50,118 nt of DNA from Deltaproteobacteria bacterium. GTDB lineage: Bacteria > Desulfobacterota > Desulfobacteria > Desulfobacterales > UBA11574. The stretch spans positions 1 through 50,118 of the forward strand of contig JAFDHQ010000003.1 of assembly GCA_019308685.1 (NCBI GenBank), written 5' to 3'. The notes under the pieces are model-generated. The model was given only the letters and a program-made list of their open reading frames with translations. It was not told the DNA's origin and did not search any database. The position numbers and the translations under genes were made by a program. Positions 5,613 through 37,819 of this stretch are shown piece by piece; position 1 is the first letter of the stretch, and each line of letters begins with the position of its first letter.

Positions 5613-5758
5613 TAGTGTCCATCCAGAAATGGTAGATTTTGGTTTGCGGCAAGGCCCGAGCGAGTTTTCAACCGCAGGCATAGCAAGCTATGTCGAGGAT
5701 TGAAAACGAGCGAGAACGCCGCCGGGGGCCGAAAGATGCCGTTTATGGATGGACATTA
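5613..5758. repeat. ERIC-like/MITE repeat, subfamily B (146 bp, TA...TA)
   Basis: Terminal inverted repeats TAGTGTCCATCCAGAAATGG / CCGTTTATGGATGGACATTA. Core ACCGCAGGCATAG-CAAG-CTATGTCGAGGATT. Overlaps the metF-like stop codon. Confidence 0.8.
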
Positions 5759-6618
5759 TCTATTATCTCCGGAAGCTTGTGCTCCCATCCAATAGTTGCC
5801 ATGTTTACGCCGCTGAATCCTTCTTCTTTTAACGATGTAACCATTTCTGATGCAATCAGAGTACACTCTCGAACCTTGTCAGGGGATTTTCCGATACGGT
5901 CAATCAGAGAATCAGGGATAAAAACATTATCCACATTACGCATGATGTAACGGGCCATTCCTAAAGATTTGAGCAGCAACACCGTGGGAATGATTTTAAT
6001 TTTCTCTGTTTCCACCCGTTTCATGAACGGCTGGATGGCGGAAAGATCGAATAACGGCGGGGAGATGAAAAATTGGGCGCCGGCCTCAATTTTTTTGTTC
6101 ATCTCTTCAATCTCCAGTTCAATGGATTTTCCCTTGGCCCCTGCATCAACCGTGGATCCCACCAAGAACTCGGGGGAACCCGTTAGTTCGATTCCGGCCA
6201 TGTCCTTTCCTTGCTCGAGCCCGCGAATTGCGCTGAGTAACTCCAGAAGGTTGATGTCATATACGGATCTTGCCTGAAAGTGGTCTCCAAAGCTGGGATC
6301 TTCTCCGGTAACCGCCATAACGTTTGTAACACCGCATCCATAAGCTGCCAGAAGATCCGCTTGAAGAGCGATTCGGTTCCTGTCTCTGCAGTTGACCTGC
6401 ATGACAGTTTCCATTCCTTTTCCCTGCAGAATCATGGCCCCTCCAAGGGCACTCATGCGCATGACAGCGTTACTCATTTCAGGCACCACAAAGGCATCTA
6501 CCTCCCCCTTGACTTTCATGGCGTTCGTCACCATAGTGGAAACATCTATCCCTTTGGGGGGTTCCATTTCCGCAAGGATAGCAAATTCCCTTGCTTCGAA
6601 TTTGCGCTTTAAATGCAT
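5743..6618 (-). CDS. metF: Methylenetetrahydrofolate reductase (MetF)-like flavoprotein, divergent active site
   Basis: AEMEPPKG, AVMRMS, CRDRNRIALQADLL, GDH, KKIEAGAQFF. ATG 6618 preceded by GGAGG. Confidence 0.75.
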   Translation of the reverse strand: MHLKRKFEAREFAILAEMEPPKGIDVSTMVTNAMKVKGEVDAFVVPEMSNAVMRMSALGGAMILQGKGMETVMQVNCRDRNRIALQADLLAAYGCGVTNVMAVTGEDPSFGDHFQARSVYDINLLELLSAIRGLEQGKDMAGIELTGSPEFLVGSTVDAGAKGKSIELEIEEMNKKIEAGAQFFISPPLFDLSAIQPFMKRVETEKIKIIPTVLLLKSLGMARYIMRNVDNVFIPDSLIDRIGKSPDKVRECTLIASEMVTSLKEEGFSGVNMATIGWEHKLPEIIDNVHP

Positions 6619-6700
6619 AGGCTTTCCTCCGATTTTCAACTTAAAAAACAAAAAACAGCTTATGAATCATTGAGTTTTCAGAGTTTACGGATGTAGTATG

Positions 6701-6716
6701 AGCAACAACTGTGCCA
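6701..6716 (-). promoter_or_regulatory. sigma54 -24/-12 promoter for metF-hdrA-mvhD
   Basis: Minus strand TGGCAC-AGTTG-TTGCT (GG-N10-GC), about 80 bp upstream of the metF ATG. Confidence 0.85.
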
Positions 6717-6826
6717 GGAGGATATAATTTTGATAAATATAAATAAATGACTATTATATCATATACATAGACAATTATTTGTTGCCATGACCGAAAATAT
6801 TTTAAGATTTGATTTCACGGGGCTAT

Positions 6827-6919
6827 TGTGCCAATTTGGCACATGTGTTATACATGTAGAGAGCAAATCAGTGATTGAGCAACAATTTGTGCCATTTTAG
6901 AACAGTCCCTTTTGGGACA
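6827..6919. promoter_or_regulatory. Putative enhancer (UAS) sites for a sigma54 activator
   Basis: Perfect palindrome TGTGCCAA-T-TTGGCACA (6827-6843), a related site TGTGCCATTTTAGAACA (6888-6904) and AGTCCCTTTTGGGACA (6904-6919). They lie 110-200 bp upstream of the sigma54 promoter, beyond an AT-rich spacer. Confidence 0.65.
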
Positions 6920-6942
6920 GAGACCGGAAAGGGGATGGTTGA

Positions 6943-8313
6943 ATGCAGAATCAAATAATTATTATTGATGATGATACCGATTACCTTGAAATCATCAAAG
7001 GGCAGTTGCTCAAGTCCGGTTTTAAAAATATATACACCGAAGACAATCCCATGGAAGCGGCGTCTCTTTTTGAAGAGGGAAACGTTTTCGATATCGCGCT
7101 GGTGGATATGACCATGCCGGAAATGGATGGACTGGAACTTCTTGAGATAATTAAAAACATAAGTCCAAGAACCGAATGCATCATGGCTACCGCCGTTAAC
7201 GAGGCCCGAATTGCAGTGGAATGTCTTAACAAAGGGGCTTATGACTATCTGGTAAAGCCTATCTCCCAGGGAGACCTTGTATTTTCCATGAAACGAGCCA
7301 TGGAAAAAAAGCGTCTAATTGATATTCTGGATATAGAAAAAAGCCAAACATTGCCCCAACTGGTGAACAAAAAACCTTTCAAACCGATTATCACCCGGTC
7401 TCAAAAGGTTCTAAGGGTTTTAAAGGAAGCGGAATTGCATGCCGGTAGTGATGTTCCTCTTTTAATTACCGGTGAGAGTGGTACGGGTAAGGAACTTCTG
7501 GCATGGGCAATTCATGCCGCAAGCCCCAGATCAGAATATCCCTTTACACCGGTCAATATGGCTTCACTCACCGGCAGCCTTTTTGAAGCTGAATTTTTCG
7601 GTCACACAAAAGGCGCTTTCACCGGTGCTCAAAATGGCCGCTCCGGCTATCTGGAATACACCAATCAAGGAACCATGTTTTTAGATGAAATCGGTGATCT
7701 CCCCATAGAGATTCAGGGTAAGTTTTTGCGCGTTTTACAGGATGGGGAATACCTTAAACTGGGGACCAACGTTCATCAGAAAGCGGACGTACGATTTATC
7801 GCGGCGACCAACAAAGATCTGGAAAAAATGATGGCCAAAAAAGTTTTTCGGAAAGATTTATATTATCGTGTCCGGGGGGGATGGCTTCATCTGCCTCCCT
7901 TGAGAGAAAGAAAAGAGGATATTCCGCTCTTGGCCGACAAATTTTTACAAGATTGCGACGGTTTCGCTAAAAATCAAAACATTGAAGAAGAAACCATGTG
8001 CCTGCTTATGGAGCATGACTATCCCGGGAATGTCAGGGAACTCAGATCGATAATCCAGTCCGCTGTAAATCTGGCACAGGGGAAACCCATCTTATCAGAT
8101 TTTCTTCCCGCGCATTTAAAAAAGCGCAAATCCATATCAACATGCCTGCCCCGCCCCGTGTCAGACCATATTGCACCCCTTGCACAAATTGAACAATCCC
8201 ACATTATTCGGGCGTATAAGCTGACAGGCCGAAACAAATCCCAAACCGCCAGGCTTCTTGGAATAGGTTTGAACACCCTCCGAAGAAAGCTTAAATCGTA
8301 TGGACTGATGTAA
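6943..8313 (+). CDS. sigma54-dependent response regulator (REC-AAA+-Fis HTH, NtrC family)
   Basis: IIDDD..VDMTMP..KP receiver; GESGTGKE, GAFTGA, FLDEIGD, PGNVREL; C-terminal HTH. Confidence 0.95.
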   Translation: MQNQIIIIDDDTDYLEIIKGQLLKSGFKNIYTEDNPMEAASLFEEGNVFDIALVDMTMPEMDGLELLEIIKNISPRTECIMATAVNEARIAVECLNKGAYDYLVKPISQGDLVFSMKRAMEKKRLIDILDIEKSQTLPQLVNKKPFKPIITRSQKVLRVLKEAELHAGSDVPLLITGESGTGKELLAWAIHAASPRSEYPFTPVNMASLTGSLFEAEFFGHTKGAFTGAQNGRSGYLEYTNQGTMFLDEIGDLPIEIQGKFLRVLQDGEYLKLGTNVHQKADVRFIAATNKDLEKMMAKKVFRKDLYYRVRGGWLHLPPLRERKEDIPLLADKFLQDCDGFAKNQNIEEETMCLLMEHDYPGNVRELRSIIQSAVNLAQGKPILSDFLPAHLKKRKSISTCLPRPVSDHIAPLAQIEQSHIIRAYKLTGRNKSQTARLLGIGLNTLRRKLKSYGLM

Positions 8314-8543: not shown

Positions 8544-9473
8544 TCAGGTCTTAAGAAAAACCTTTATAAACTTGGCCCAGTTTTTCCCTTCAAGTTCTTG
8601 AGAAATGTCTTCAACTGAGACACCACCATCTGCGGCCACCCGCAAATCGTCATTGGCCATGGCAAAAAGCTTTTCCCTTTCCCCATGGATAAAATTACGG
8701 GCCTCCTTGTCGTAATAGAGTCCTTTTAAGTTTTTACGCAGCCGGGTTGGCTCAAGGGTAAATAACCATCCTTTTTCATAGGGAGATTCGTTGATCAGGT
8801 CCGGTTGATCCCGTAGGTAATGGTTCACATTGGCGACAATGCCGTCCATTGGAGAGAGGAGTTTGGCAACGTCTCCATTGCGCCTGACTTGAAATCCTAC
8901 TTCTCCCTGTTTTACTTCCTGGCCAATATTCGGCAGCTCAATCCTCGAGAGTTTTCCGATAAGTTTTTGGGCAAAATCATCCAGCCCCACTCGAACACGC
9001 CCCCCATATTCCGGTTTGGCCCATGTGTGGCCGTCGTGATAATAGAAATCTTCTGCCAGTTCAAAACCGCTTTCCCGGCTTCTTGCATGAACCGGAAGCG
9101 TCTCAGCCTGAAGGCGTTCCTGCATCATCTGGTCAAAAGAACATGTGCCGCATTCATAAGCATTGGGGCATAATTTATGACCCACTTCCCCGGTGATCAT
9201 GTAACGACATTTGCGCCGATTAGCAGGAAGCTGCATCATTTTATCTGCCCAGGTTTCGGTGAATTTATCCGGTACTGCCGCCAACGGTTGTACGGCAACT
9301 TTTTCCTTATACCGGGCAACCCGATCATGCATACCATGGTCGTATACACAGGTAGAGCAATCAAAGTTGTGATCGCACAGTTTATAGGAAACGACCCCGG
9401 CCTCCATCCATACACATTTTTTCTTGCCTGGTGGTACAATTCTCATTGATTCCCTCTTTTTGGTGGCGCCCAT
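8544..9473 (-). CDS. GcvH-like protein lacking the lipoyl lysine, with two N-terminal 4-Cys repeats
   Basis: HTWA..VRVGLDDFAQKLIG..ELP..G..SPMDG..VN..P.LIN.SPYEKGWL matches the GcvH fold. The ESVK turn reads RRNG. RBS GGAGG. Confidence 0.85.
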   Translation of the reverse strand: MGATKKRESMRIVPPGKKKCVWMEAGVVSYKLCDHNFDCSTCVYDHGMHDRVARYKEKVAVQPLAAVPDKFTETWADKMMQLPANRRKCRYMITGEVGHKLCPNAYECGTCSFDQMMQERLQAETLPVHARSRESGFELAEDFYYHDGHTWAKPEYGGRVRVGLDDFAQKLIGKLSRIELPNIGQEVKQGEVGFQVRRNGDVAKLLSPMDGIVANVNHYLRDQPDLINESPYEKGWLFTLEPTRLRKNLKGLYYDKEARNFIHGEREKLFAMANDDLRVAADGGVSVEDISQELEGKNWAKFIKVFLKT

Positions 9474-9537: not shown

Positions 9538-9553
9538 AGCAAACCCTATGCCA
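9538..9553 (-). promoter_or_regulatory. sigma54 -24/-12 promoter for the GcvH-like gene
   Basis: Minus strand TGGCAT-AGGGT-TTGCT. Confidence 0.8.
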
Positions 9554-9770: not shown

Positions 9771-9782
9771 TCCATTCAAGGC

Positions 9783-10343
9783 TCAATGAGGAGACTGCTG
9801 GAGGGATTTTCTAAGATACCATTGGAAAAGCTCAAAACAGGTGGGGCAAAAGTCAGTTTGTTTTAAGTCCGTATCCTCAATCCGAACCGAGGAATACATC
9901 ACACAACGCCGATCCCTGCAATGGGTCAAACCGAATGTGTGCCCCAGTTCGTGCACGGCCGTCTTTTCCACCCGTGCCAATAAAAGATCCGGATTGGAGG
10001 GCTGGTCATAAAACCGGGGATAAAGCCGGTGTAGGGATATTATTGAACATTTGCCCTGGATCTGTGCTAATCCGAAGACAAACCTAAGAATGGGCACATA
10101 CAAATCCACGGAAGTCACTCCGATCACCCGAAAGGTGTCCTGGAGACTTCGTTGAAGGAGGTGCTTTAATATCAGCTTTGAATTATACTGGCAACGGGTA
10201 TCATTATAGGCGTACCGAGGATTTTCCATATTCATTGAGATTCTGCAGTTTAGGCCACATCGATTTGAAATACATTTCGCGATGTGCTCGAGAATCTCTG
10301 GGTCCACCGAGCCTATGGGACAGATCGTAACGCAGCTTGACAA
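9783..10343 (-). CDS. Archaemetzincin (peptidase M54 family Zn metalloprotease)
   Basis: HELGHTFGLTH-C-RDRR-C-VM...FCPTC, i.e. HExxHxxGxxH plus a Cys4 Zn site; DLY...FVFGLA. TTG start uncertain. Confidence 0.9.
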   Translation of the reverse strand: MSSCVTICPIGSVDPEILEHIAKCISNRCGLNCRISMNMENPRYAYNDTRCQYNSKLILKHLLQRSLQDTFRVIGVTSVDLYVPILRFVFGLAQIQGKCSIISLHRLYPRFYDQPSNPDLLLARVEKTAVHELGHTFGLTHCRDRRCVMYSSVRIEDTDLKQTDFCPTCFELFQWYLRKSLQQSPH

Positions 10344-10349: not shown

Positions 10350-11702
10350 TTATGATTCCTTTTCAATCTTATATTTTGCAATTTTATTATAGAGCGTCTG
10401 GCGGTCAATTTCCAAAAGTCGCGCTGTTTTGCTGATGTTCCAATCTGTTTCTTCCAGAATTCTCTTGATATGCAATTCTTCCATCAACTTCAAGGAATCG
10501 GGCATTGTTTCAGGCTCTAATTGCTTGCGTGAAAACGGAAGGTCCTCTATCACGATTTTTTTGCCCCGCCCGATAACCAGCGCCCTTTCGATGACATTTT
10601 CCAGTTCTCTCACATTTCCGGGCCAGTTGTAATCCATCAGCAATTTCAAGGCCGAAGAGGAGATTTTTACCAACTCTTTATTCATTTTTAGACAATACCT
10701 GCGTATAAATGCTTTCACCAGCAGCGGGATATCATCCTTTCGCTCCCTCAACGGCGGTACAGGAATAGAAATGACGTTCAATCGGTAAAAAAGATCTTCA
10801 CGAAATTTATTTTCAGAAATTGCCTTTTTTAAATCTTGATGGGTCGCAGCTAAAATACGCACGTCTACTTTAATTTCTTCCTGACCCCCGAGACGTCTGA
10901 ACTCTTTTCGCTGCAAAACCCTTAAAAGATCCACCTGGGTTTTTAAACTGATATCACCGATTTCATCTAAAAAAAGAGTTCCTTTATCGGCCATTTCAAA
11001 GCGACCCTTTTTGGTATGCTCTGCACCGGTGAAGGCGCCCTTTTCGTAGCCGAATAGTTCACTCTCCAACAAGGTATCGGGCAACGCCCCGCAACTTACG
11101 GCAATAAACGGCATGTAACAGCGCTGACTGTTTCCGTGAATTGCCTGTGCGATCAGTTCCTTACCGGTGCCGCTTTCACCGGTTATCAGTACGGTGGAGT
11201 CGGTGGGCGCCACCTGCGAAATTAAATCGTAAATTTCTTGCATGGCGTCACTTTTACCTATGATTTCATCATATTCTGATTTTTCCTCCAGCTTTTGACG
11301 CAGTAAAATATTCTCTAAAACCAGCTCTCGATGGGCGACAATCTTCTTGATTTGCATTTCGATCTCGTCAGGGGCGAACGGTTTGACCAAATAATCAAAA
11401 GCGCCTTCCTTCATAGCCTGAACGGCGGTATCTACCGTAGCATAGGCGGTCATCATGAGTATCTCAGCATCTGTGTCCACGGGTTTACCTTTAAGTTGCT
11501 TCAATGTTTCCAATCCGTCCATACCCGGCATTTTCAGATCCAGCAAAATCACATCCCAGCTTTTTTCCATGGCAATGGCAATGGCATCTTTGCCGCTTTG
11601 GGCCAGGCCTACCTCATAACCATCCTCTTTAAGCCAGTCATAAAGCGCTTCTCGCATGGGTGCTTCATCATCAACCACAAGAATACGAGCCTTTTTGGTC
11701 AT
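10350..11702 (-). CDS. sigma54-dependent response regulator (AtoC/ZraR-like)
   Basis: LVVDDE..LDLKMP..MTAY..KPF; GESGTGKE, GAFTGA, WPGNVREL; Fis HTH. Confidence 0.95.
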   Translation of the reverse strand: MTKKARILVVDDEAPMREALYDWLKEDGYEVGLAQSGKDAIAIAMEKSWDVILLDLKMPGMDGLETLKQLKGKPVDTDAEILMMTAYATVDTAVQAMKEGAFDYLVKPFAPDEIEMQIKKIVAHRELVLENILLRQKLEEKSEYDEIIGKSDAMQEIYDLISQVAPTDSTVLITGESGTGKELIAQAIHGNSQRCYMPFIAVSCGALPDTLLESELFGYEKGAFTGAEHTKKGRFEMADKGTLFLDEIGDISLKTQVDLLRVLQRKEFRRLGGQEEIKVDVRILAATHQDLKKAISENKFREDLFYRLNVISIPVPPLRERKDDIPLLVKAFIRRYCLKMNKELVKISSSALKLLMDYNWPGNVRELENVIERALVIGRGKKIVIEDLPFSRKQLEPETMPDSLKLMEELHIKRILEETDWNISKTARLLEIDRQTLYNKIAKYKIEKES

Positions 11703-11857: not shown

Positions 11858-13933
11858 TCACAAAGGGGCTAACGGCAGGCTCATCTTGAAAGTACTTCCT
11901 TTGCCGGGCTTGCTTTCCACTTCTATGGTGCCATTATGCCGAGTAATAATGCCATATACCACCGACAAACCAAGGCCCACACCTTTTCCCTCTTCTTTGG
12001 TTGTAAAAAAAGGATCAAAAATTTTTTCCTTGTCTTCCTCGGTAATGCCGCAACCCGTATCGGAAACCATAACGTCTAAAAATCTATCATTCCCTGCTTT
12101 TCTGTTGGCCGTTACCGTCAGGGTGCCGCCATCAAGCATAGCGTCTGAAGCATTGTACATGAGATTTAATAGGGCCTGTTGAATCTGCTGAAAATCGCAT
12201 TGAACGTTGGGCAGATTCGGCGCAATGTTTTTTCTATGCTGAATATCTTTAATTTCCAAATCATGGGCAATAAGAACAAGAGTCCTATCAATAATGTCTG
12301 TAATGCGGGTGCTTTTAATTTTGATTTCAGACTGGCGGGAAAAGGCCAAAAGGTTTTTCACGATTTCGCCGCACCTGGCAGTTTCCGATTCCATGGTGAG
12401 CAAATATCGGGAAATGTCCTCAAGTCTTTCGGGAGAAAATTTATTCCGATCTTTAAGTTTAATCATTAAACGGATATAAGTAAGAACTGCCGCCAAAGGA
12501 TTGTTTATCTCATGAGCAATAGTAGCGGCCAATTTGCCCAAAGAGGCCAGTTTTTCTGTCTGTACAATCTGTTCTTGGGCATCTTTGAGATCCTCATAGG
12601 CCCTCTTTATATTTTCATATAAATTTGCATTGTCCACGGCAACGCCGATCTGGTTGCCGATAGCGGTCAAGAATTCAATATGCTCGGTTGTAAGCTCAAC
12701 CGGGTAATGGCTGCTGACGCACATGACCCCCATCATCTTCCCTTTGTTTGACAGCGGTATATAAGCGGTTGTATGCAGGCCCTCTTCGATCATGAAATCG
12801 ACATAGGGATCTTGGGATCGCAAATAGTTGTCCACCAATCTTGTTTCACCGTCAAGTAGGGTCTGACCCAAAAGTCCATCCCCGGGTTTACGATTTTTCA
12901 TAAAGGGTTTGGCTATTAATTGAGGTGAAAGCCCTTTATGCGCCACCAGTTTGAGGATCTTTTGTTTATCGTCTATCAAATAAATCCTGACACTGTCAGA
13001 CTCCAGCACCTCGAGAGTTTTTTCGATAGTGCTACTGATTATCTCATCGAGATTCAAACTGCTGCTAACGGTTTTAGAGATGGAATTTAAAATATCCAGC
13101 CGGATATTCCGCTTCTCGATTTGCTGTTGTGACATTTTTCTCTTGGTAATGTCTCTGATAATCAGCACATAGCCGGTAATCTTACCGGTTACATCCACCG
13201 TTACATTCGATGTAATCAACGCATAAAATTCTGAATCATTTTTACCCTTAAGACGGGTTTCAAACTCCACCACGAAACCCTCCTGGGCGACTCTTTTCTG
13301 GAGCTCAATGAAATCCTGTTTCTCTACAAAGAGGTTGGCAGTAGATTCTCGTGCCAAAACATCTTTTTGGGTCTTATATCCCAATATTTGAACCCCTGCC
13401 TGGTTAACCTCAACGATCCTTCCATGGGAGTTGGTGAGAATGATCGCATCACGGGAGCGTTCAAATATGGTTCGATATTTCTCTTCGGATTTTTGCAACT
13501 CTTCCAGACGATTGGCCAGCATCTCTTCCAGGTTGTCTACCAAATTGTCAATATTTTCCTGAATGTGCTGCCTTTTCGTAATGTCCGTCGCTCTTTCCAG
13601 GACATAAACGATCTCGCCCCGTTCGTTCTTGACCGGAATCGTTCTAACCAGCATATTGGCAACTCTGCCGCCCTTCATTATTACATTTTCTACATTCCAG
13701 TGTCCCCGGCCATCCCGATAGGTCTTTTCCACCAGACATTCTTCACATTTTTCCTCTCTGTTTTTCCATACCCTGTAACAGAACTCATTGGATTGCATAC
13801 CGAATTCATTTTTAAAAAGCTCGTTGGCCATTATGATCTGATAATTGCGGTTGATAGCGACGACATAATCCGTAGCGCTATCAATAAGTGTTCTATAATA
13901 TTTATGTTCTTGTAAAAACTCTTCAGTTTTCAT
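11858..13933 (-). CDS. Soluble PAS-PAS-GAF sensor histidine kinase
   Basis: H-box AHEINNPL, N-box NLMYNASDA, DTGCGI, FFTTK, GVGLGL. No evident TM helix. First PAS has C-x10-C-x2-C. Confidence 0.95.
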   Translation of the reverse strand: MKTEEFLQEHKYYRTLIDSATDYVVAINRNYQIIMANELFKNEFGMQSNEFCYRVWKNREEKCEECLVEKTYRDGRGHWNVENVIMKGGRVANMLVRTIPVKNERGEIVYVLERATDITKRQHIQENIDNLVDNLEEMLANRLEELQKSEEKYRTIFERSRDAIILTNSHGRIVEVNQAGVQILGYKTQKDVLARESTANLFVEKQDFIELQKRVAQEGFVVEFETRLKGKNDSEFYALITSNVTVDVTGKITGYVLIIRDITKRKMSQQQIEKRNIRLDILNSISKTVSSSLNLDEIISSTIEKTLEVLESDSVRIYLIDDKQKILKLVAHKGLSPQLIAKPFMKNRKPGDGLLGQTLLDGETRLVDNYLRSQDPYVDFMIEEGLHTTAYIPLSNKGKMMGVMCVSSHYPVELTTEHIEFLTAIGNQIGVAVDNANLYENIKRAYEDLKDAQEQIVQTEKLASLGKLAATIAHEINNPLAAVLTYIRLMIKLKDRNKFSPERLEDISRYLLTMESETARCGEIVKNLLAFSRQSEIKIKSTRITDIIDRTLVLIAHDLEIKDIQHRKNIAPNLPNVQCDFQQIQQALLNLMYNASDAMLDGGTLTVTANRKAGNDRFLDVMVSDTGCGITEEDKEKIFDPFFTTKEEGKGVGLGLSVVYGIITRHNGTIEVESKPGKGSTFKMSLPLAPL

Positions 13934-13960: not shown

Positions 13961-14107
13961 AATGAGTCTGTTGATTAATGGTCTTTTCGCACAATCTCCG
14001 CGTTATGCTCAAAAAATAATCCTCGGAATATCAAATATATGCCTGTGGTTATTTTTTTCGCATGCCTTGATCTTGAACGAAAATCCTCATTAATCAACAG
14101 ACTCATA
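13961..14107. repeat. ERIC-like/MITE repeat, subfamily B (reverse orientation)
   Basis: Perfect 19-bp inverted repeat ATGAGTCTGTTGATTAATG / CATTAATCAACAGACTCAT. Core AATCCTCGGAATAT-CAAA-TATATGCCTGTGGTT. Confidence 0.8.
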
Positions 14108-17395: not shown

Positions 17396-17400
17396 AATTT

Positions 17401-18869: not shown

Positions 18870-19053
18870 CTTATTTGTCCTTTTAAAATTGTGGTGAATC
18901 CTTAAAAGGTTGCTTTTCAAGCTAACTATTTAAAATTTTATTGAAAATATATGAGACAAAATGGTATGTGATGTCAATAAAAAATAATAGATAGTTTATC
19001 TCTTTTTAAAAATTGAAACGCTCATCTTAGGTCTTTGATTCAAAGGAAATATC

Positions 19054-23206: not shown

Positions 23207-23352
23207 GAGAGACCTTTGAAAAACGTTCAATTTTGTTCAAGTTCAAGGAAGACGAAGATTTTAACCACAGGCATACATTGAGTATGTCGAGGATTAAAAT
23301 CTGAGTCTGACGCAGAAATTGGGCAAAAGGGGACGTTTTGCAAAGGTCTCTA
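23207..23352. repeat. ERIC-like/MITE repeat, subfamily B
   Basis: Inverted ends AGAGACCTTTGAAAAACGT / ACGTTTTGCAAAGGTCTCT. Core AACCACAGGCATAC-ATTGA-GTATGTCGAGGATT. Abuts the mvhD RBS. Confidence 0.8.
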
Positions 23353-23363
23353 GGAGGGAGATC

Positions 23364-29141: not shown

Positions 29142-29219
29142 TATAATAATTTTCGCCAAGTTGAGCAGCGAAGCCGCGTTCTATAAAATCGTAATACGAT
29201 TTTATTGTGGAAGGCAAAT

Positions 29220-30152: not shown

Positions 30153-31472
30153 TTACACGGATGCTCGTCGGGAAATGGGTAGCCGGTTTATACTGATGGT
30201 TGGACATGCCGCGGAAAGGGCAACCCGAAGGGCATTTGAACCGAGCAAAGCTTTTTCCGGATCAATCTCTTTGGAATGATGGGCCATAATGATTAAGTCG
30301 GCATTCCTCCACCTGGCGAATTTGAGGATCTCGACATATGGCCTCCCCTCCCATGATTCAAAAGAATATTCTACAACTCCTTCTAATTCCGAGCCATATT
30401 TGTTTTTCATTCTTTCCTTGGCGTCATTGATACTGTTTTCTATATTCGCTTGATCTATCATCAAAACATTCTCATCATGGATAACAGGCACCACGTGAAA
30501 GAGGTGGAGTTTGGCCTGGTATCGGCGGGTCATCCTGGAGGCAAAATCAAAGGCATGTTGAGCCCGTTCAGAAAAGTCCGTAGCCAGGACAATATTAGAA
30601 AACGTCACCTTTACCGATCGAAGAGCTTCAAAATCCTGGTATACCTGAAAGACCTTATCCACAAGGATCTCAGGGTCAAATGGTTTGAGGAGATAGTCAA
30701 GGGCTCCAATCTTCAAGGCTTCTATGGCCGTTTCTACGGTGGCGTAGGCGGTCATCATGATTACGGTAAGATCGGGAAAGGATTTATGGGCCCTTTTAAG
30801 GAGTTCAACACCGTCCATTCCCGGCATTTTGATATCCGTAAGCATCAGGTGATACGGTTGGGTCGACAGTTTATCCAGAGCCTCCGGACCGGATGCCGCC
30901 ATATCCACGGTATAGCCCTCATCTTCAAGCCATTCTTTGATTGAATCGCGAACGACGAGTTCATCGTCCACCACCAGAATTCGAAAATCCCGGCGCTCAC
31001 CAACAGCATCCTTGGTCCAGATCTTTGGAACCTGCTTGGGAACGATCATCACGGGACAGCGTGCCCGTTGGCTCACTTTTTGGAGGCTGCTGCCGGCCAT
31101 CCCCCATCTTGTCGGCAGATCTTCATCGGTTTCTTTTTCATGGGAACCCATGACAATCAGGTCAACGACTTTATTTCTGGCAAAACGCAAGATTTCGCTA
31201 TGAGGCATTCCTGCAACAACTTCGATGGTATAATTTTGAACCCCAAATTTTTCGATCTTTTCTTGATAGTAATGAGCTATTTCTTTTTTTGTTTCCTCTA
31301 CTTTGCCGGAAGGCAAAAGATGTCTCATTCCTCCCCATCCATTTGAGTCTATGCCGTAGGCGTGGAAAATATACAATTCGGCATTGCCTTGCTTGGCCAG
31401 AGCAAAAGCCATATCCGCAGCACGTTTACTGGCTTCTGTGGGAGATGCAGCGAAAAGAACTTTTTTAAACAT
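30153..31472 (-). CDS. USP-receiver-USP fusion (universal stress protein with internal REC domain, 30624-30992)
   Basis: USP1 MFKKVLFA...DLIVMGSH...GS..QKV...CPVMIV; REC LVVDDE/TDIKMP/MTAY/KPF; USP2 FSNIVLATDFS...DLIIMAHH...LLGS...CPTI. Confidence 0.9.
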   Translation of the reverse strand: MFKKVLFAASPTEASKRAADMAFALAKQGNAELYIFHAYGIDSNGWGGMRHLLPSGKVEETKKEIAHYYQEKIEKFGVQNYTIEVVAGMPHSEILRFARNKVVDLIVMGSHEKETDEDLPTRWGMAGSSLQKVSQRARCPVMIVPKQVPKIWTKDAVGERRDFRILVVDDELVVRDSIKEWLEDEGYTVDMAASGPEALDKLSTQPYHLMLTDIKMPGMDGVELLKRAHKSFPDLTVIMMTAYATVETAIEALKIGALDYLLKPFDPEILVDKVFQVYQDFEALRSVKVTFSNIVLATDFSERAQHAFDFASRMTRRYQAKLHLFHVVPVIHDENVLMIDQANIENSINDAKERMKNKYGSELEGVVEYSFESWEGRPYVEILKFARWRNADLIIMAHHSKEIDPEKALLGSNALRVALSAACPTISINRLPISRRASV

Positions 31473-31640: not shown

Positions 31641-33896
31641 CTAAGCTTTTCTGTATTGCCGCTTGGGTTGATCCTCCCTCTTCAGCGACGGAAGACGAAT
31701 CGTAAAAACGGTCCCTTCCCCCAGCTTGCTGTCAACAGTGATAGATCCCTTATAGCGGTCGATGATACCGTAAACCATGGAAAGTCCGAGTCCAAGCCCC
31801 TTCCCTTCTGTTTTTGTGGAATAGAACGGATCAAAAATCTGGTGAATGTCTTCCTCAGCAATACCGCATCCGGTATCTTCTATTTTTATTTCGACCATCT
31901 CCGTTATCGGATCAAATGAACTTACCATGGTCAGGGTGCCGCCATCCGACATGGCGTCAATAGCATTAAAAATGAGATTGATAACGCATTGCTGGGTTTG
32001 ATTAAAGTCCCCCAAAACCTTTGGAATATTCGGATCAAAATCGGTTTTAATCTGGATATTCTGAAGCATGAGTTTGTGCTGGCTGAGCAGAATGCATTTT
32101 TCCAGAAGCTCGTTAATACTCATTTCGCTGAGTTCCAATTCAGATTTGCGTGAGAACGCCAGCAGATTGGAAACGATCTTGGAGCAGCGGCTGGTCTCAC
32201 TCTCAACTAGGGTGAGATGTTTTTGAAACTTTTCTATTCTTTTTTGGTCCAAATCCCCCCTTTTAATGATTTTGAGCATCAGGCGAATATAGTTCAAGAT
32301 TCCTGATAGGGGATTGTTGAGCTCATGGACGACGCTGGCGGACAGCCTGCCCAGAGAAATCATTTTGTGCTCGTGAATCAGTCGGGTTTGATCGGCAAAC
32401 TGCTGTTCCATTCTTCTGATTTCTCTTAAATCCCTGAAAAATCCCACCATGCCGATCTCTTCGTCTTGGTCAAACATAACCGTAGCCGAAAGCTGGACCG
32501 GGATCTTATCACCGGTTTTATTAATCATATATGTTTCAAAAAGAATAAGCCGGTTTTTCCCTCCGTATTCATCGGAAACCAGTTCTTTCCTGACCTCTTC
32601 CAACATCGCCGGCGGGAAAAGATCGTTAAAAGACATTTTCATGATCATTTCATATGCGGAATAACCCAGCAGTTTCTCGGCTTGCTGATTGAAAACGACA
32701 ATGGAACCATCTCTGTCCGAGGCGATGATGGCATCTATGGAACTCTGAATCAGGTTGTGTTCAAACTCAAAGAGTGTTTGGAGCTCTTGTTGCAGGCGCT
32801 TGACCTCGCGCATATCTTTAAAATAGCCTACCGTGGCAACTTCCTGACCTTCTTCATACAGCAATGTTGCGGAGAGCAGAATGGGTACGATCTGCCCATA
32901 CTTATCGACAATTTCCACTTTATAGTTAAGCAAACGGCCGCCCCCCCCGTGTTCAGGCCCGTAAATCATTCTCTTAATTTTTTTAGCCTCGCCCTCTTTG
33001 TAAAACCGGGTAACGTGAATTTTGGAAACTTCCTCCTGGGTGTAACCGAAAACGTTTTCAGCGCCTTTGTTAAAAATGATGATGTTGCCTTTACGGTCAT
33101 TGGCAATGATCGGGTCTATTGAGGTCTGGATAAGGTTGGTTTGAAAGTCATGCGCTTTTTTAAGCTTTCGTTCCATCTCCTTTCTCTGGGTTTGATCCAC
33201 ACAGATCCCTTCATACCCGATAACCTTCCCCTCTCGATCATAGCGGGCGTGGGCGGTTCGCAATACCGAGATCACTCTTCCATCCTTGCGCTTCAAATCA
33301 ACTTCATAGTCAATGACGTGACCGTCTCGTTCAATCAAATCCATGTATTTTCGGCGATCTTCAGGTTTCAGATAAAGGTCTCTGGCGATATCTACCTTAA
33401 GAAACTCCTCTTTGCTCGTGTATCCCAACATCTCCATAAGAGCCTGATTGGCATCAATAAACTTACCTTCCTTGCTGCTTATATGCACACCGACACGCAC
33501 ATGTTCAAACAATTTTTTGTAGTCTTCTATGGAGGCGCGAAGCATTTTTTCGCGCTCTTTTGTCTCTGTGATATCCTGATATATACAAAAATGCGATATG
33601 GTTCCTTTATCGGTTTGCAAAGGTAATTCGAAAATCTCGAAAGTTTTGTCGATGTGCGGAAAGTAGTTTTCCCAACGAAGGGTTTCTCCCTTAAAGACTT
33701 CTTTTGCCCTGCACCAGGAGCAGATATCGTCTTGATTCGCAATCACCTGATAACATTTCTTTCCAATGCCTTCTCCAAAGACGTTAATACTGGCCTTGTT
33801 CATAAATTGTACAGTGTAATCATCCCCGATGATATAAACGCCACACCCCATGGCATCTAAAATTGAAGCAAGCCGTTGGGTCTCTTGATCAATCAT
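31641..33896 (-). CDS. Soluble sensor histidine kinase with four PAS domains
   Basis: VHELNNPL, NLIFNAIDA, DTGCGI, FYSTK, GLGLGL; four PAS-like repeats; first PAS has C-x10-C-x2-C. Confidence 0.95.
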   Translation of the reverse strand: MIDQETQRLASILDAMGCGVYIIGDDYTVQFMNKASINVFGEGIGKKCYQVIANQDDICSWCRAKEVFKGETLRWENYFPHIDKTFEIFELPLQTDKGTISHFCIYQDITETKEREKMLRASIEDYKKLFEHVRVGVHISSKEGKFIDANQALMEMLGYTSKEEFLKVDIARDLYLKPEDRRKYMDLIERDGHVIDYEVDLKRKDGRVISVLRTAHARYDREGKVIGYEGICVDQTQRKEMERKLKKAHDFQTNLIQTSIDPIIANDRKGNIIIFNKGAENVFGYTQEEVSKIHVTRFYKEGEAKKIKRMIYGPEHGGGGRLLNYKVEIVDKYGQIVPILLSATLLYEEGQEVATVGYFKDMREVKRLQQELQTLFEFEHNLIQSSIDAIIASDRDGSIVVFNQQAEKLLGYSAYEMIMKMSFNDLFPPAMLEEVRKELVSDEYGGKNRLILFETYMINKTGDKIPVQLSATVMFDQDEEIGMVGFFRDLREIRRMEQQFADQTRLIHEHKMISLGRLSASVVHELNNPLSGILNYIRLMLKIIKRGDLDQKRIEKFQKHLTLVESETSRCSKIVSNLLAFSRKSELELSEMSINELLEKCILLSQHKLMLQNIQIKTDFDPNIPKVLGDFNQTQQCVINLIFNAIDAMSDGGTLTMVSSFDPITEMVEIKIEDTGCGIAEEDIHQIFDPFYSTKTEGKGLGLGLSMVYGIIDRYKGSITVDSKLGEGTVFTIRLPSLKREDQPKRQYRKA

Positions 33897-33979: not shown

Positions 33980-34366
33980 TTATCTGGGATGACATTCGCT
34001 GCACATGATCGGTCCGGCCTTTTTTTCCTGGTGGCATCCCTTGCATTGCAAATGGTAAATGTTTACAAGGGAAATGGGGTTGTCGCCTTTATTAATGGTA
34101 TGGCATTCCGAACATTCCTGGCCTTCGGACGAATCATATTCAACGAGTTTCCCATCCTCATATACATGATGACACGTATTGCATTCATCAAGCTCTGCCT
34201 GTTCATTGTGCTGATCATGCAGAAACGGAACCCCCGGTCTCATCTTCTTCTCAAATGCGCTGTCTTCAACAGTTGTCACATCTTCCTGTGAATAGCCGGA
34301 CATCACCGCAAATATACAACCCAACAGAATTATTAACGTATATATTATCAAAGTCCTTTTTTCCAT
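33980..34366 (-). CDS. tmcA: Acidic tetraheme cytochrome c3 (TmcA)
   Basis: Signal peptide; four CxxCH (CNTCH, CSECH, CKGCH, CSECH); FLHDQH; tmc context. Confidence 0.88.
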   Translation of the reverse strand: MEKRTLIIYTLIILLGCIFAVMSGYSQEDVTTVEDSAFEKKMRPGVPFLHDQHNEQAELDECNTCHHVYEDGKLVEYDSSEGQECSECHTINKGDNPISLVNIYHLQCKGCHQEKKAGPIMCSECHPR

Positions 34367-34412
34367 CAAGATTCCCCCGATTTTATGAGCCCGGCCCAAC
34401 TGAATTTACTCT

Positions 34413-35756
34413 TTATTCCGGTTTTTCCATGACTTTGTATATAATATCACCCAGAAAATGTAGTTCCATATCGAGGCCGAAGTGATGATTAATATCTTCA
34501 ATTCCGCCATGACAGTTATGGCAAGGGGCTATTATAACCTTTGCACCCCTGGCCTTTGTCGCAAATAACTGCTCTGCCTTGATCCTGTTCCCTTTAATCC
34601 GTGTCATCTTGTATTGAGGACCGGTGTTTATTACACCGCCTCCGGCACAACAACAATAATTATGTTCCCGATTGGGATGCATCTCGATAAATTCTTCACA
34701 AATGGCATTAACAACATAACGCGCCTTTTCATGAAGCCCTTTTCCCCGGACAATATTGCAGGGATCCTGAAAGGTCACCGGCTTATCATATTTTTTAGTG
34801 ATTTTTATCTTCCCCTCTTTTAATAATTCATAATAGAGTTCCACGGCATGTATAATGGGTATTGGCGGCATCTTCCATGCCAGCCAGCGGTTTCCCACAT
34901 CATATACCGATCGGAATGCATGTCCGCATTCTCCCATTACAATACGCTTGACCTTGAGGCGCATCGCCGTTTCAAAATGTGCCTTTTTTAACCGGCCCAT
35001 CATTTCATAGTCTCCGGTAAACATGCATAGATCGCTGTTGTCCCATCCGGGTGTTGCCGGCATGGTAAAATCAACTCCGGCTACATTCATGATAACCGCA
35101 GCCTGATATATGAGCTGTGCTCGAAATTTCGGTTCAGGAGCAATCACAGAGTAAAGAGTTTCAGCTCCTTCCTTTTCCAGGGGTATTCTTAAAGAAGATA
35201 TTTCATCCTGTGCTTCTTCTTCTTGCCAAAACAGACTGTCAATCCATTCATCTTCCTTTACCCACATCTGGTTTAAGCAGGCGGAATGGCTGTGCGCGGT
35301 ATCCTGTATGTACAGCGGGGTGACCCCCAGCATATGGCAGAGCCTTCGCACAATAGACATTAAGTAAGCAATGTCTATACCAAATGGGCAATACATGGCG
35401 CAGCGTCGGCACAGGTTGCATTCCGTGTATGCAATGCGGGAGGCATTTCTTATAAACTCAGGATCAACGTTACCCTTTTTCTTTAATATTTCCCATATGG
35501 TTTGTTTCACCTTACCCGCAGGAGAATATTTCGGATCGTTATCATGGGAAAGATAATAGTGGCAAGCCTCAGAGCAAAGTCCACAGTGGACACAGGTTTC
35601 AACATAGGCCTTCAGCCGGGCGCCGGTTTCCGACGCCAAAACCTTGTTGATAACCTGCTTGATCTTCTCCGGAGTCAAGCGTGCAATTCCCTTATCAATC
35701 CCCTCATCAACAACTTTATTAATTTCATCTTTTTTATTAATGGCTGGTTCAGCCAT
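34413..35756 (-). CDS. tmcB: TmcB, HdrD/DsrK-like Fe-S/CCG subunit
   Basis: CVHCGLCSEAC, CNLCRRCAMYCPFGID, GECGHA, DPCN, CCCAGGG, PCHNC. Confidence 0.88.
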   Translation of the reverse strand: MAEPAINKKDEINKVVDEGIDKGIARLTPEKIKQVINKVLASETGARLKAYVETCVHCGLCSEACHYYLSHDNDPKYSPAGKVKQTIWEILKKKGNVDPEFIRNASRIAYTECNLCRRCAMYCPFGIDIAYLMSIVRRLCHMLGVTPLYIQDTAHSHSACLNQMWVKEDEWIDSLFWQEEEAQDEISSLRIPLEKEGAETLYSVIAPEPKFRAQLIYQAAVIMNVAGVDFTMPATPGWDNSDLCMFTGDYEMMGRLKKAHFETAMRLKVKRIVMGECGHAFRSVYDVGNRWLAWKMPPIPIIHAVELYYELLKEGKIKITKKYDKPVTFQDPCNIVRGKGLHEKARYVVNAICEEFIEMHPNREHNYCCCAGGGVINTGPQYKMTRIKGNRIKAEQLFATKARGAKVIIAPCHNCHGGIEDINHHFGLDMELHFLGDIIYKVMEKPE

Positions 35757-35771
35757 GTTATATTCTCCTTT

Positions 35772-35809
35772 TATTACCTGAATCTTGCACGATTCGGAGG
35801 CTTTTATAT
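35772..35809. repeat. 38 bp intergenic repeat, copy 2
   Basis: Repeat of 31563-31600; part of the hairpin CCTGAATCTTGCACGA...TCATGCAAAATTCAGG. Confidence 0.7.
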
Positions 35810-35840
35810 TTCATGCAAAATTCAGGGATTAAATTGTTTC

Positions 35841-36500
35841 CTACCAATCCTTTGCATGCCTGACAGCACCGAATTCAGATCCCATGTACCCCCTTGTAAA
35901 GGGGAAAAAAATCATATGTATCAAACGTGTAAAAGGAATTGCCGCCAGCATGGTTTCTCCGGCTATGATGTGGAGAATTCCCATAATTCTAAAACCCGGC
36001 CACTGATGATATGTCCAGAAACCCGTGATAAAGGGTGCAGCAACAATAGCAAGTATTACATAATCAGAAATAGAGGTTAAGTACTTGACCTCCGGCAGAA
36101 CGATTCTTCTCACAAGAAAAAAAATACATGAAGCAATAGCCACTATCGTCAATACATCGGCAGCAGTGTCCGAAATATACCACCAGCTAACCCCCCACGA
36201 TTCTTTCCAGAGAATGATATGTGCGCTAAGAAAAATCGGGATAAAAATAATGCAGATATGAAATGTAAATGTGACGATGGTGAAAAACGGATTTTTCCTC
36301 CATTTTACAGTCCCAAAAGGGGTGATCCAATGCAGGATCGACCGAAGTCCAAATTTGAAACTCATATATTCATATACGAATACATCCTTCTTCCTGGCCA
36401 GCACGGCCATGGAGATCAGCCGGTACAAACACCCCGCAAAAAAGATAATAAAGGAGGCCCAGACCAGCGGGCCGCTAACAAAATTATAGATATCATGCAT
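35841..36500 (-). CDS. tmcC: TmcC, NarI-like membrane cytochrome b
   Basis: Several TM helices; FH, LSAH, LHI..GE, IPFTRLIH; C-terminal RGYMGSEFG. Confidence 0.88.
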   Translation of the reverse strand: MHDIYNFVSGPLVWASFIIFFAGCLYRLISMAVLARKKDVFVYEYMSFKFGLRSILHWITPFGTVKWRKNPFFTIVTFTFHICIIFIPIFLSAHIILWKESWGVSWWYISDTAADVLTIVAIASCIFFLVRRIVLPEVKYLTSISDYVILAIVAAPFITGFWTYHQWPGFRIMGILHIIAGETMLAAIPFTRLIHMIFFPFTRGYMGSEFGAVRHAKDW

Positions 36501-36535
36501 GGCTTTTTTCCCTTTTAGCCCGAGAGAGATCCGGG

Positions 36536-37819
36536 TTAGCCGGTAATTTCGGTGACCGTTAAAACCTGTCGAAAATACTTGCCGTCCTCGGAATCGCCCT
36601 CGATTCCTTTTATGAGAATCTTTTTAGAGTCAGGGCTGAAAACAGGATCCCACAGCGCTTCATACGATTTCTTAAGAGATTTGCCATCTATCACGATGGT
36701 ATAACGTCCATTTTTTTCGACTTTTGCAGCGACCCTTCTGCTGTCAGGGCTGAAAACAGGCTGCCAGACCATATTATATGTTTCCCCCCAAGCCCTACCG
36801 TCCACAGCAATGGTATACTTTCCGTCTTCTTTTCCGATGCAGGCAATCCTGCTTCCGTCCGGGCTGAAAACCGCATCAGTAACAAGATCACCAAAGGTGA
36901 GAGACCAGGGGTTACCGTCAACTGCAATGGTCCAGCGACCATATTTGGGTGCCACCACGGCAGCTATTTTTTTTCCGTCCGGACTGTACATATGGTGCCA
37001 GAGTTGATAAAAAGAGCGATCCCAAAACGAGTTGCCGTCTTGGGCAAGAGTCCATTTTCCCGCTATCCTTACCGGCGCAGTAACAGAACCGTTTGCCGGG
37101 CTGAATTGCGGCATCCAAACGGAAGAATATACCTTATCCCAAAGAACTCCGTCCACAGCAATGGTGTAATCATAAAGGGAAGTTCTCACTTCCGCGGCCA
37201 CGTGATCAGAATCATGGGAAAAGGCCAGGCCCCAAACGTTAACGAAATTTGCATCCCATGTCTTTCCGTCCACCACTGCGGAATAACAACCTTCCTGAAA
37301 TTGAAAAATATCCCCTTGTTTAATCGGGATGGTAGGGACGACACCGGCAACTCTTTTCCCATCATGGCTGATGGTGAGATTGCTCAGGTCTGAAAATCTC
37401 GCCTCCCATGATATATCGTTTGTCACGGCAAAGTATTCCATGTCTTTTTGAGCAGCTACGGTGATATTTTTGCCGTCCGCCCCGAATTTGGTATTCCATA
37501 AAAAATCAAAGGTGTTTTCCCAGGCAACGCCATCCACCGACACCGTCCATGCTCCCATATCCGACACCAATGCCGTCAACCGGTTATCAGGCCCAAATTT
37601 TAAATACCATACTTTATCAAACGTACTTTCCCAAAGCGTATCATTTTCACAAACTCTAAATTCCATGTCACCTGTTTTAACCACTGCTACGATACGTTCT
37701 CCGTCCGGGCTGGCATAAGGTTCCTCTACCCCGTCGAACATATTCTTCCACTTACCGGTATCCACAATTAACTTTTTTCCGGTTTCCCAGTCCCAGGTGC
37801 TTAAATTATGCATGACCAT
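36536..37819 (-). CDS. tmcD: TmcD, Trp-rich beta-propeller-like subunit
   Basis: Repeated W..P.FSPDG / VDG..W units; N-terminal WDW; tmc context. Confidence 0.85.
   Translation of the reverse strand: MVMHNLSTWDWETGKKLIVDTGKWKNMFDGVEEPYASPDGERIVAVVKTGDMEFRVCENDTLWESTFDKVWYLKFGPDNRLTALVSDMGAWTVSVDGVAWENTFDFLWNTKFGADGKNITVAAQKDMEYFAVTNDISWEARFSDLSNLTISHDGKRVAGVVPTIPIKQGDIFQFQEGCYSAVVDGKTWDANFVNVWGLAFSHDSDHVAAEVRTSLYDYTIAVDGVLWDKVYSSVWMPQFSPANGSVTAPVRIAGKWTLAQDGNSFWDRSFYQLWHHMYSPDGKKIAAVVAPKYGRWTIAVDGNPWSLTFGDLVTDAVFSPDGSRIACIGKEDGKYTIAVDGRAWGETYNMVWQPVFSPDSRRVAAKVEKNGRYTIVIDGKSLKKSYEALWDPVFSPDSKKILIKGIEGDSEDGKYFRQVLTVTEITG

Follow-up and report, generated by a model that had tools for sequence, protein, structure and literature searches.

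Can a two-component signal act directly on an enzyme of energy metabolism, through a receiver domain built into the enzyme itself? This question is raised by a locus in a 50,118-nucleotide stretch of DNA from a Deltaproteobacteria bacterium of the order Desulfobacterales (assembly GCA_019308685.1, contig JAFDHQ010000003.1, positions 1 to 50,118; hereafter the window), in which a gene for heterodisulfide reductase (Hdr) subunit A encloses a CheY-like receiver. The fusion, HdrA::REC (24988-28428, plus strand, 1146 amino acids), is the part of the locus most worth experiments. Sulfate reducers, methanogens and acetogens all depend on HdrA-type modules as a central element of their energy conservation, and the regulation that we found described for them is transcriptional, in the available passages on D. 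vulgaris (PMC3333781). If the reading developed below is true, a receiver within the flavoprotein would be a direct, fast and post-translational switch on an energy-metabolism enzyme. A preliminary description of the locus had drawn its signalling proteins together into a single branched phosphorelay connected with both Hdr and the Tmc complex. The observation behind it was confirmed, and its interpretation is partly supported: the best explanation, which we hold with modest confidence, comprises three regulatory circuits around Hdr-type redox modules and not one four-armed relay. Its observed basis is anatomy, conservation, paralogy and gene linkage, from which we infer the phosphorylation partners and effects.

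The insert in HdrA was recognized by the Pfam Response_reg profile at residues 192-301 with 112 bits against a cut-off of 30.2 (E 2e-32), and the receiver as a whole covers residues ~190-305 (nucleotides 25555-25902). The alignment of the fusion with the solved HdrA 5ODC_A (E 1.7e-118) consists of four stretches: residues 7-182 correspond to 145-310 of 5ODC_A, covering the first part of the flavin domain plus the inserted ferredoxin domain; 316-509 to 319-511, the remainder of the flavin domain; 584-757 to 2-168, the N-terminal cluster domain and a second flavin-domain start; and 965-1144 to 467-649, the flavin-domain end and the C-terminal ferredoxin domain. Because of this four-piece match, HdrA::REC can be regarded as a fused, unequal (asymmetric) tandem HdrA pair. 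Compared with 5ODC, the first half contains the inserted ferredoxin domain and is devoid of the N- and C-terminal domains, whereas the second half has both terminal domains and a flavin segment ~90 amino acids shorter, a difference that may correspond to the inserted ferredoxin domain. Both halves carry GxGxxG and CxGSR(D/E)...CSxxCC, as seen in the sequence and in the alignment, which we take to be the flavin- and cluster-binding motifs. The scores remained under the NCBIfam equivalog cut-offs (691.5 vs 1100 for HdrA2 and 539.9 vs 1400 for HdrA), and the protein is best classified as HdrA-like, not as the methanogen enzyme. The receiver occupies the gap in the first half, at the point of return from the inserted ferredoxin domain to the flavin domain. 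The same position is given by HdrA1, a tandem HdrA paralog of 1019 amino acids without a receiver, encoded in the second hdr operon of the window (hdrC1-hdrB1-hdrA1, 14336-18920, minus strand; Pfam and NCBIfam): residues 19-184 and 316-1146 of the fusion align to HdrA1 23-183 and 190-1009, and the receiver is a clean insertion of ~130 amino acids between HdrA1 residues 183 and 190. In methanogen complexes the inserted HdrA ferredoxin domain is taken to lie on the ferredoxin-reducing branch.

The key residues of the receiver are the phospho-acceptor D240, the acid pocket D196/D197, T268 and K290. All five are invariant in 36 aligned sequences, and the DD-D-T-K set is kept in 63 of the 63 orthologs for which the receiver region was available, although overall identity among these proteins is 58-96%. 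This conservation argues against the inserted domain being a pseudo-receiver that serves only assembly or dimerization independently of phosphorylation. Such receivers exist, as illustrated by a D. vulgaris regulator in which the phospho-acceptor Asp is replaced by Gly (available passages of PMC3333781), but for HdrA::REC we consider this role highly improbable.

The fusion is not a peculiarity of one genome. A scan of relatives, with one genome per species, gave 170 stretches, the best 80 of which were kept and constitute 68 loci, mostly full length (56-96% identity). Most of them are labelled Desulfobacterales, Desulfobacteraceae or Deltaproteobacteria, with a few Syntrophobacterales, and the carriers include Desulfonema magnum, D. 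limicola and Desulfatirhabdium. When 301 genomes drawn evenly from the order were searched with a 321-amino-acid query spanning both receiver junctions, at least 130 had a junction-spanning match (E ≤1.8e-106) and five more had contig-end fragments crossing the ferredoxin-receiver junction, so that, among the matches listed, ~135 of 301 (~45%) carry the fusion. In a phylum-wide draw it was present in four of 200 other genomes, from three families. In a large protein collection, the best 120 clusters all combine PF00072 with HdrA domains; the proteins are called 'heterodisulfide reductase subunit A/A2', 'FAD-dependent oxidoreductase' or 'response regulator' by different sources, and because of this inconsistent naming the fusion is easy to overlook. 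A literature search of openly available full texts yielded no description of a receiver within HdrA.

In the window, the fusion belongs to a plus-strand operon that follows the order hdrL2, mvhD, frhB-like, hdrA::REC, hdrC2 and hdrB2. HdrL2 (19748-23158, 1136 amino acids) comprises an HdrA N-terminal part, a GltD/NfnB-like NAD(P)H module and an HdrA C-terminal part; it is followed by MvhD (23319-23786; Pfam FlpD, E 4e-53), an FrhB/FdhB-like Fe-S flavoprotein subunit (23828-24970; Pfam FrhB_FdhB_C) and, behind the fusion, HdrC2 (28560-29141) and HdrB2 (29205-30089). In both hdr operons of the window, HdrB has the two CCG domains and HdrC has Fer4_8 and Fer4_17. Neighbourhoods were counted over 67 loci, since one of the 68 (L009) had no HdrA segment longer than 350 amino acids; core genes were counted where the flank sufficed, and the counts are given without statistics, as loci from related species are not independent. 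Upstream of hdrA::REC, hdrL2 was present in 37 of 40 loci, mvhD in 52 of 55 and the frhB-like gene in 51 of 55; downstream, hdrC2 was present in 33 and hdrB2 in 36 of 54, and in loci without these two an HdrD-like pair often precedes hdrA. The HdrA alignment, the HdrB with two CCG domains, the dicluster HdrC and the mvhD in the operon are features shared with HdrABC-MvhAGD of methanogens (5ODC). In contrast to that complex, no hydrogenase genes are present here, and a NAD(P)H-type HdrL and the FrhB-like subunit stand in their place. DsrC as a substrate of this Hdr complex is a guess. The same gene set and order is reported for hdr locus VIII of Desulfobacterium autotrophicum HRM2, with an hdrL/hdrA4 tandem together with fdhB, hdrB and hdrC (Strittmatter et al. 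2009, PMC2702500). According to a figure legend of that paper, the genes drawn at the hdr loci include those for a response regulator, a histidine kinase and a CheY-like regulator, at a locus it does not specify; the word 'receiver' occurs 0 times in its main text and its available passages mention no receiver inside HdrA4.

Which kinase would serve such a receiver? Kinase genes almost always accompany hdrA::REC: of the 25 loci in which ≥8 kb of flank is available on either side, 22 have one. In the window, the set tmcD, tmcC, tmcB, tmcA, HK2 and USP::REC::USP converges, on the minus strand, on the hdrA::REC operon. USP::REC::USP (30153-31472) is a response regulator with two Pfam Usp domains (universal stress protein, USP) around a Response_reg domain, and HK2 (31641-33896) is a soluble histidine kinase consisting of a Cys3-PAS domain, three more PAS domains (Pfam), HisKA and HATPase. 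The four Tmc proteins all exceed the cut-offs of their NCBIfam equivalogs: TmcA (33980-34399) 160 vs 114, TmcB (34413-35756) 843 vs 735, TmcC (35841-36500) 337 vs 240 and TmcD (36536-37819) 605 vs 440. When the 87-90 receiver open reading frames (ORFs) of the genome are ranked by identity to the HdrA receiver, that of USP::REC::USP comes first (75.6%), then a regulator on contig C152 (55.7%) and the sigma54 activator S54B (49%). Comparison of the USP with the HdrA receiver of one and the same genome gave 62-75% identity (73-76% in this one); here the two differ at two of 19 positions of helix 1, and USP and HdrA receivers group together against outgroups (FastTree support 97).

The order survey also gave ORFs of ~440 amino acids with receivers 53-69% identical to the HdrA receiver, and eight such places were examined. 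All 14 USP::REC genes examined share their locus with a kinase gene of the HK2 subfamily, directly next to it in 13 cases and with tmcDCBA in between in the remaining one, and the two proteins appear to be a conserved cognate pair. In four genomes from three other families (G134, G264, G214 and G067), USP::REC and an HK2-subfamily kinase follow hdrB directly and co-directionally, in the order hdrL, mvhD, frhB, hdrA::REC, hdrC, hdrB, USP::REC::USP, a REC-PAS kinase of the HK2 subfamily and a further kinase of 605-867 amino acids that belongs to the '770-amino-acid' type described below; all genes of these operons are co-directional and tightly packed. Another genome (G267) has the convergent arrangement with hdrB2 seen in the window, and one (G040) has HK2 and USP::REC alone. 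As the HdrA and USP receivers are each other's nearest relatives and the former has no kinase of its own, HK2 most likely phosphorylates both, forming a one-to-two branch. In this first circuit, phosphorylation of D240 would change how the ferredoxin-side domain sits and thereby alter electron routing in the HdrL-MvhD-FrhB-like-HdrA-HdrCB complex, while USP::REC would pass this signal on to another target, possibly Tmc.

A rather unlikely alternative is that HK2 and USP::REC are specific to Tmc, and that HdrA::REC is phosphorylated by HK1 (the second soluble kinase of the window, discussed below) or by an unlinked kinase, elsewhere by a membrane kinase with its REC-kinase. Several findings weigh against the best explanation, some of them in favour of this alternative. 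In a genome of the same family as the window (G151, 92% complete), the order is tmcDCBA, HK2, USP::REC, and in a second (G187, 72% complete) an HK2-like gene stands before tmcDCBA and USP::REC after it. Both keep tmc, HK2 and USP, and HdrA::REC was not found in them among the matches listed; the pair therefore does not seem to need HdrA::REC. The commonest pattern next to hdrA::REC is a co-directional membrane kinase of ~770 amino acids (sensor, HAMP, PAS, PAS, HisKA) followed by a REC-kinase of ~390 amino acids, which in other lineages are the most frequent neighbours (24 and 23 of 42 loci, respectively) and whose docking helices are unlike those of HK2 (19-23% identity). Kinases of the HK1 subfamily abut hdrB2 in six loci (L019, L021, L028, L031, L036 and L038), in the L019 type after two GcvH-like genes, which links HK1-type kinases to hdrA::REC as well. 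Moreover, the HdrA receiver has the same helix 1 and beta5-alpha5 region next to every type of kinase, with no covariation, so that linkage cannot name the kinase. The grouping of the USP and HdrA receivers is weak in IQ-TREE (Shimodaira-Hasegawa-like approximate likelihood ratio test 72), and the trees leave the USP receiver either nested in or sister to the HdrA receivers. Finally, an AlphaFold2 model of HdrA::REC, built from 36 orthologs, is only moderate (mean predicted local distance difference test, pLDDT, 73.5; predicted template modelling score 0.70); although the receiver blocks (residues 190-310) average a pLDDT of 68-87, the ferredoxin insert is poorly modelled and domain contacts are unreadable. 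The origin of the USP receiver from inside the HdrA receiver clade, suggested by FastTree nesting, was set aside in view of the weak IQ-TREE support and an approximately unbiased test compatible with HdrA monophyly (p 0.574).

On the other side, no ortholog of the 770-amino-acid kinase or of the REC-kinase was found in this genome, an absence that is weakened by its incompleteness (94.7% complete). A pair restricted to Tmc is also at variance with its position inside the hdr operon in the four genomes described above, with no tmc nearby, and with the identity between the USP and HdrA receivers. In D. multivorans, response-regulator, USP and kinase genes are reported in the tmc/hmc region, 'resembling' D. 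vulgaris, in the available passages of PMC5109826, which favours the Tmc-specific arrangement. The window, G151 and G187 likewise have tmcDCBA beside HK2 and USP::REC; in contrast to that description, USP and receiver are here one protein, whose receiver groups with that of HdrA, and other families keep the pair in the hdr operon. Since the pair stands either inside the hdrA::REC operon or beside tmcDCBA, Hdr and Tmc may be linked through one signalling module, and the window is the meeting place of these two contexts. This part of the earlier Hdr-Tmc connection is retained; as a general arrangement it is not supported, tmc adjoining hdrA::REC in only six of the 67 loci. Two further observations concern the membrane-kinase pair, which lies downstream of hdrA::REC in L007, L018, L065, L068 and ~20 other loci: the dimerization and histidine phosphotransfer domain of the 770-amino-acid kinase is strongly conserved (MATLGEMATGvAHELNQPLSVIKT), and the REC-kinase has an unusual H-box, SISHGIKGLL, that is missed by Pfam HisKA.

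The branch from HK2 to two receivers could also be read in reverse. Phosphate-sink receivers are known in other branched pathways, and the HdrA receiver may act as a redox-dependent sink or sensor input that drains or holds phosphoryl groups of HK2 according to the flavin/Fe-S state and so tunes USP::REC. The receiver sits beside redox centres, and it is a second receiver with a near-identical interface for the same kinase, which is consistent with such a role. However, most genomes with HdrA::REC lack USP::REC (present in five of 67 loci, with 10 such receiver rows among the matches listed), so that a sink for the USP::REC pathway cannot be the general role, and we regard it as very unlikely.

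A more specific reading can be put forward tentatively, although it is clearly more doubtful than the three-circuit arrangement itself: flavin-based electron bifurcation or confurcation may be switched directly by two-component phosphorylation. The receiver, placed at the hinge of the ferredoxin-side domain, would gate the low-potential branch, and a redox-sensing Cys-PAS kinase could re-route electrons among NAD(P)H, ferredoxin and a disulfide carrier within seconds, without transcription, while also informing the USP regulator tied to Tmc. Such a switch would be undescribed and widespread in Desulfobacterales. D240, HK2 and USP::REC would then offer a handle on the NAD(P)H/ferredoxin/DsrC-type disulfide balance in complete-oxidising sulfate reducers and on the coordination of the cytoplasmic Hdr route with the transmembrane Tmc route. 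One-to-many and enzyme-fused response regulators are known from CheA acting on CheY and CheB, from PleD and from RssB, and the arrangement proposed here resembles them in one kinase for two receivers and in a receiver controlling the enzyme to which it is fused. It differs from them in that the output is a multi-cofactor flavin/Fe-S redox subunit and the receiver lies inside the polypeptide instead of forming an N-terminal module. Two-component control of heterodisulfide-reductase genes has a precedent in the sigma54-dependent regulator DVU2394 of D. vulgaris, which controls the adh-flx-hdr operon (Rajeev et al. 2011, available passages of PMC3333781). That control is transcriptional, whereas the receiver considered here is a part of the enzyme polypeptide.

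How far does this signalling family extend within the window? The preliminary description had named two paralogous soluble kinases and four receivers, and both counts stand. Pfam found receivers in HdrA, in USP::REC::USP and in the two NtrC-type activators of REC-AAA+-HTH type, S54A (6943-8313, plus) and S54B (10350-11702, minus). HK1 (11858-13933, minus; Cys3-PAS, PAS, GAF, HisKA, HATPase) and HK2 both contain HE[IL]NNPL...YIRLM.K and ESET.RC..IV.NLLAFSR.SE. Their HisKA-type membership is given by the H-box and by 45.6 and 45.5 bits for HisKA and 91.9 and 87.9 bits for HATPase_c (Pfam), respectively, and, as neither has a hydrophobic 19-mer of ≥1.6, they can be called soluble. Their cores are 46% identical over 246 amino acids (E 1e-74), and together with a kinase of 521 amino acids on contig C152 they are mutual best paralogs among the 55 kinase cores of the genome. 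In a FastTree phylogeny of 109 kinase cores, the HK1 (7), C152-type (10) and HK2 (23) kinases are united in a single clade of 40 members (local support 97). At 43 core positions of the docking helices, HK1 and HK2 share 65% identity, each being ~20% identical to the 770-amino-acid type.

The receivers form a corresponding set. As previously noted, KEWLEDEG and MMTAYATVETA in HdrA and USP have counterparts in YDWLKEDG and MMTAYATVDTA of S54B. The helix-1 Trp is found in only four of 92 receiver ORFs of the genome (HdrA, USP, S54B and the activator on contig C152). In related loci it is carried by 64 of 67 HdrA receivers and by all USP receivers (13 of 13) and cassette activators (9 of 9), as against 0 of 39 kinase-fused receivers; it appears diagnostic of this receiver set. 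S54A has neither the helix-1 Trp motif, with Gln at that position, nor the MMTAYATV motif, and the identity of its receiver to the other three of the window is 30-32%. Judged by these sequence relationships, a small closed kinase-receiver family connects the Hdr enzyme with the USP regulator, with sigma54 activators and, in this lineage, also with tmc. The earlier scheme is supported as far as the shared signature of the HdrA, USP and S54B receivers and the mutual relationship of their candidate kinases (with C152) are concerned, and not for S54A. Nor is the system a phosphorelay in the strict His-Asp-His-Asp sense, as no Hpt domain and no hybrid kinase was found among the 27 window proteins scanned against Pfam; relatives do have REC-kinase fusions adjoining hdrA::REC.

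HK1 belongs to the second circuit. The gene order between the hdrC1B1A1 operon and the GcvH-like gene, with HK1, S54B and the M54 archaemetzincin in succession, is as described earlier, as is the position of HK2 behind tmcDCBA. The archaemetzincin gene (9783-10343, minus; NCBIfam archmetzin, 172 bits vs a cut-off of 145), with the zinc site HELGHTFGLTH (HExxHxxGxxH), overlaps the end of S54B by 8 nt; HK1, S54B and M54 therefore appear to be one co-transcribed operon. Ahead of the GcvH-like gene (8544-9473, minus, 309 amino acids; Pfam GCV_H, E 1e-25), a sigma54 -24/-12 promoter, TGGCATAGGGTTTGCT, was predicted at 9538-9553 (minus) with one mismatch to the search pattern, and S54B would drive this promoter. 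Because the docking helices of HK1 are close to those of HK2, cross-talk from HK1 to HdrA::REC is possible. Over the 67 loci, HK2-like kinases were counted in 14, HK1-like in 6, M54 in 9, GcvH-like in 10, USP::REC in 5 and tmc in 6, and the cassette of kinase, sigma54 activator and M54/GcvH-like genes lies within 10 kb of hdrA::REC in nine. A second cassette on contig C152 (1400-7915) contains the 521-amino-acid kinase, a Trp-type sigma54 activator and M54; a GcvH-like gene, preceded by a sigma54 site of its own, converges on them.

The full scheme of the preliminary description, in which both kinases relay a single signal to the full set of four receivers, including S54A, and to M54 proteolysis, is improbable. 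All its genes lie within 32 kb, the two kinases share the Cys3-PAS N-terminus and similar docking helices, and the cassette accompanies hdrA::REC in the nine loci mentioned; these points are in its favour. The divergence of the S54A receiver, which lacks the Trp and is genus-specific, and the co-transcription of M54 with the kinase and regulator, and not behind a sigma54 promoter, speak against it. The Cys3-PAS domain, with three conserved Cys spaced C[YF]-x9-11-C-x2-C, occupies residues 1-130 of HK1 and 1-125 of HK2 and was found in 59 ORFs of related loci; its spacing is reminiscent of the Fe-S-binding PAS of NreB. It is common to HK1, HK2, the 770-amino-acid kinases (after HAMP) and the C152-type kinases, and as it occurs in at least 10 ORFs of this genome and is not locus-specific, it was rejected as evidence of one shared signal.

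S54A would constitute the third circuit, in which it separately regulates metF. The metF gene (methylene-tetrahydrofolate reductase; 5743-6651, minus; Pfam MTHFR, E 2e-32) diverges from S54A, an arrangement kept within the genus, and is preceded by a putative sigma54 -24/-12 promoter, TGGCACAGTTGTTGCT, at 6701-6716 (minus), which matches the pattern exactly. Both predicted sites have GG and GC at -24/-12 in the right spacing and lie upstream of their gene and on its strand. By count, sigma54 sites in the window are not above chance (four with ≤1 mismatch vs 1.88 expected, and 10 of 100 shuffles reach four). Both promoters, which the preliminary description had also named, are nevertheless supported by where they lie, by their strand and by their conservation in relatives: the identical metF 16-mer is present in five of 10 same-genus loci, and a site stands before 12 of 23 GcvH-like ORFs (relatives, window and C152), six of the 11 without one being the second gene of a tandem. 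The genome also contains rpoN (E 3e-62). Orthologs of S54A were found only in one genus (g1), the window copy is an orphan, and a paralog on contig C37 has an adjacent kinase; S54A appears to be an unrelated, genus-specific regulator of metF. Directly behind metF, the first gene of this group, lies the gene for a 1345-amino-acid fusion (1113-5150, minus), in which a GltD/NfnB-like NAD(P)H module is joined to an HdrA-like part, with a dicluster domain at the C-terminus. The two genes suggest an NAD(P)H-linked methylene-tetrahydrofolate reductase of MetF-Hdr type, possibly under S54A/sigma54 control. In partners of methanotrophic archaea, HdrABC adjoining metF and, in Seep-SRB1g, two adjacent HdrABC copies of unknown function are reported in the available passages of PMC10553843.

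The GcvH-like protein invites comparison with another class of Hdr-associated proteins. Sulfur oxidisers combine sHdr with lipoate-binding GcvH-like proteins, and here, too, a GcvH-fold protein is genomically tied to Hdr-like genes. It scores under the NCBIfam GcvH cut-offs, and the lipoyl-lysine of solved GcvH aligns to Gly ('rrnG' vs 'esvK' of 1ONL_A); because of this replacement a role as lipoate carrier for Hdr is unlikely and was rejected. The N-terminal 130 residues contain two repeats of C-x12-C-x6-C-x2-C, and tandem copies of the gene are present in L019, L028, L036 and L038.

In the scan of the window, 27 proteins were compared with Pfam and 19 with NCBIfam. Apart from the tmc-HK2-USP set, the minus strand carries metF, the GcvH-like gene, M54, S54B, HK1 and hdrC1B1A1, and the plus strand S54A followed by the hdrL2 to hdrB2 genes. 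A first mvhD gene, upstream of hdrL2 (19054-19485, plus), has an in-frame TGA at 19102-19104, read as selenocysteine, with Pfam FlpD matching downstream of it (E 1.6e-42); its motif, FCCSY-U-GYTAADLAG, indicates that it is probably a selenoprotein. A minus-strand ORF of 112 amino acids at 19027-19365 was rejected as a gene, being the shadow of this mvhD, and a paralogous pair of overlapping frames of the same kind is present on contig C14.

The listed TTG start of the second mvhD falls within a repeat element, and the ATG at 23365, behind GGAGG, is the likelier start. This element (23209-23350) is a 142-nt palindromic repeat resembling a miniature inverted-repeat transposable element; its ends are inverted, and it is predicted to fold into a hairpin of -66.7 kcal/mol. 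A degenerate copy lies at 13985-14082. It gave 100 blastn rows genome-wide, with ~25 full-length copies, 74-92% identical, on different contigs. No Rfam family matches it, and in an Rfam scan of the window no family reached its gathering score. Four wetland metatranscriptome runs hold 7-14% of the sampled window words, and contigs 93-99% alike cover parts of hdrL2, hdrA::REC, hdrB2/USP, HK2, tmcA and tmcD; these contigs come from relatives and show neither operon structure nor expression level. In the same four libraries, the repeat is marked by a depth spike, on 3-12 contigs each with differing flanks. Farther along the window, a RecQ helicase (40196-42025, minus) and a small RelA/SpoT-domain protein (42564-43703, minus) were identified with Pfam, both ordinary and unrelated to the fusion.

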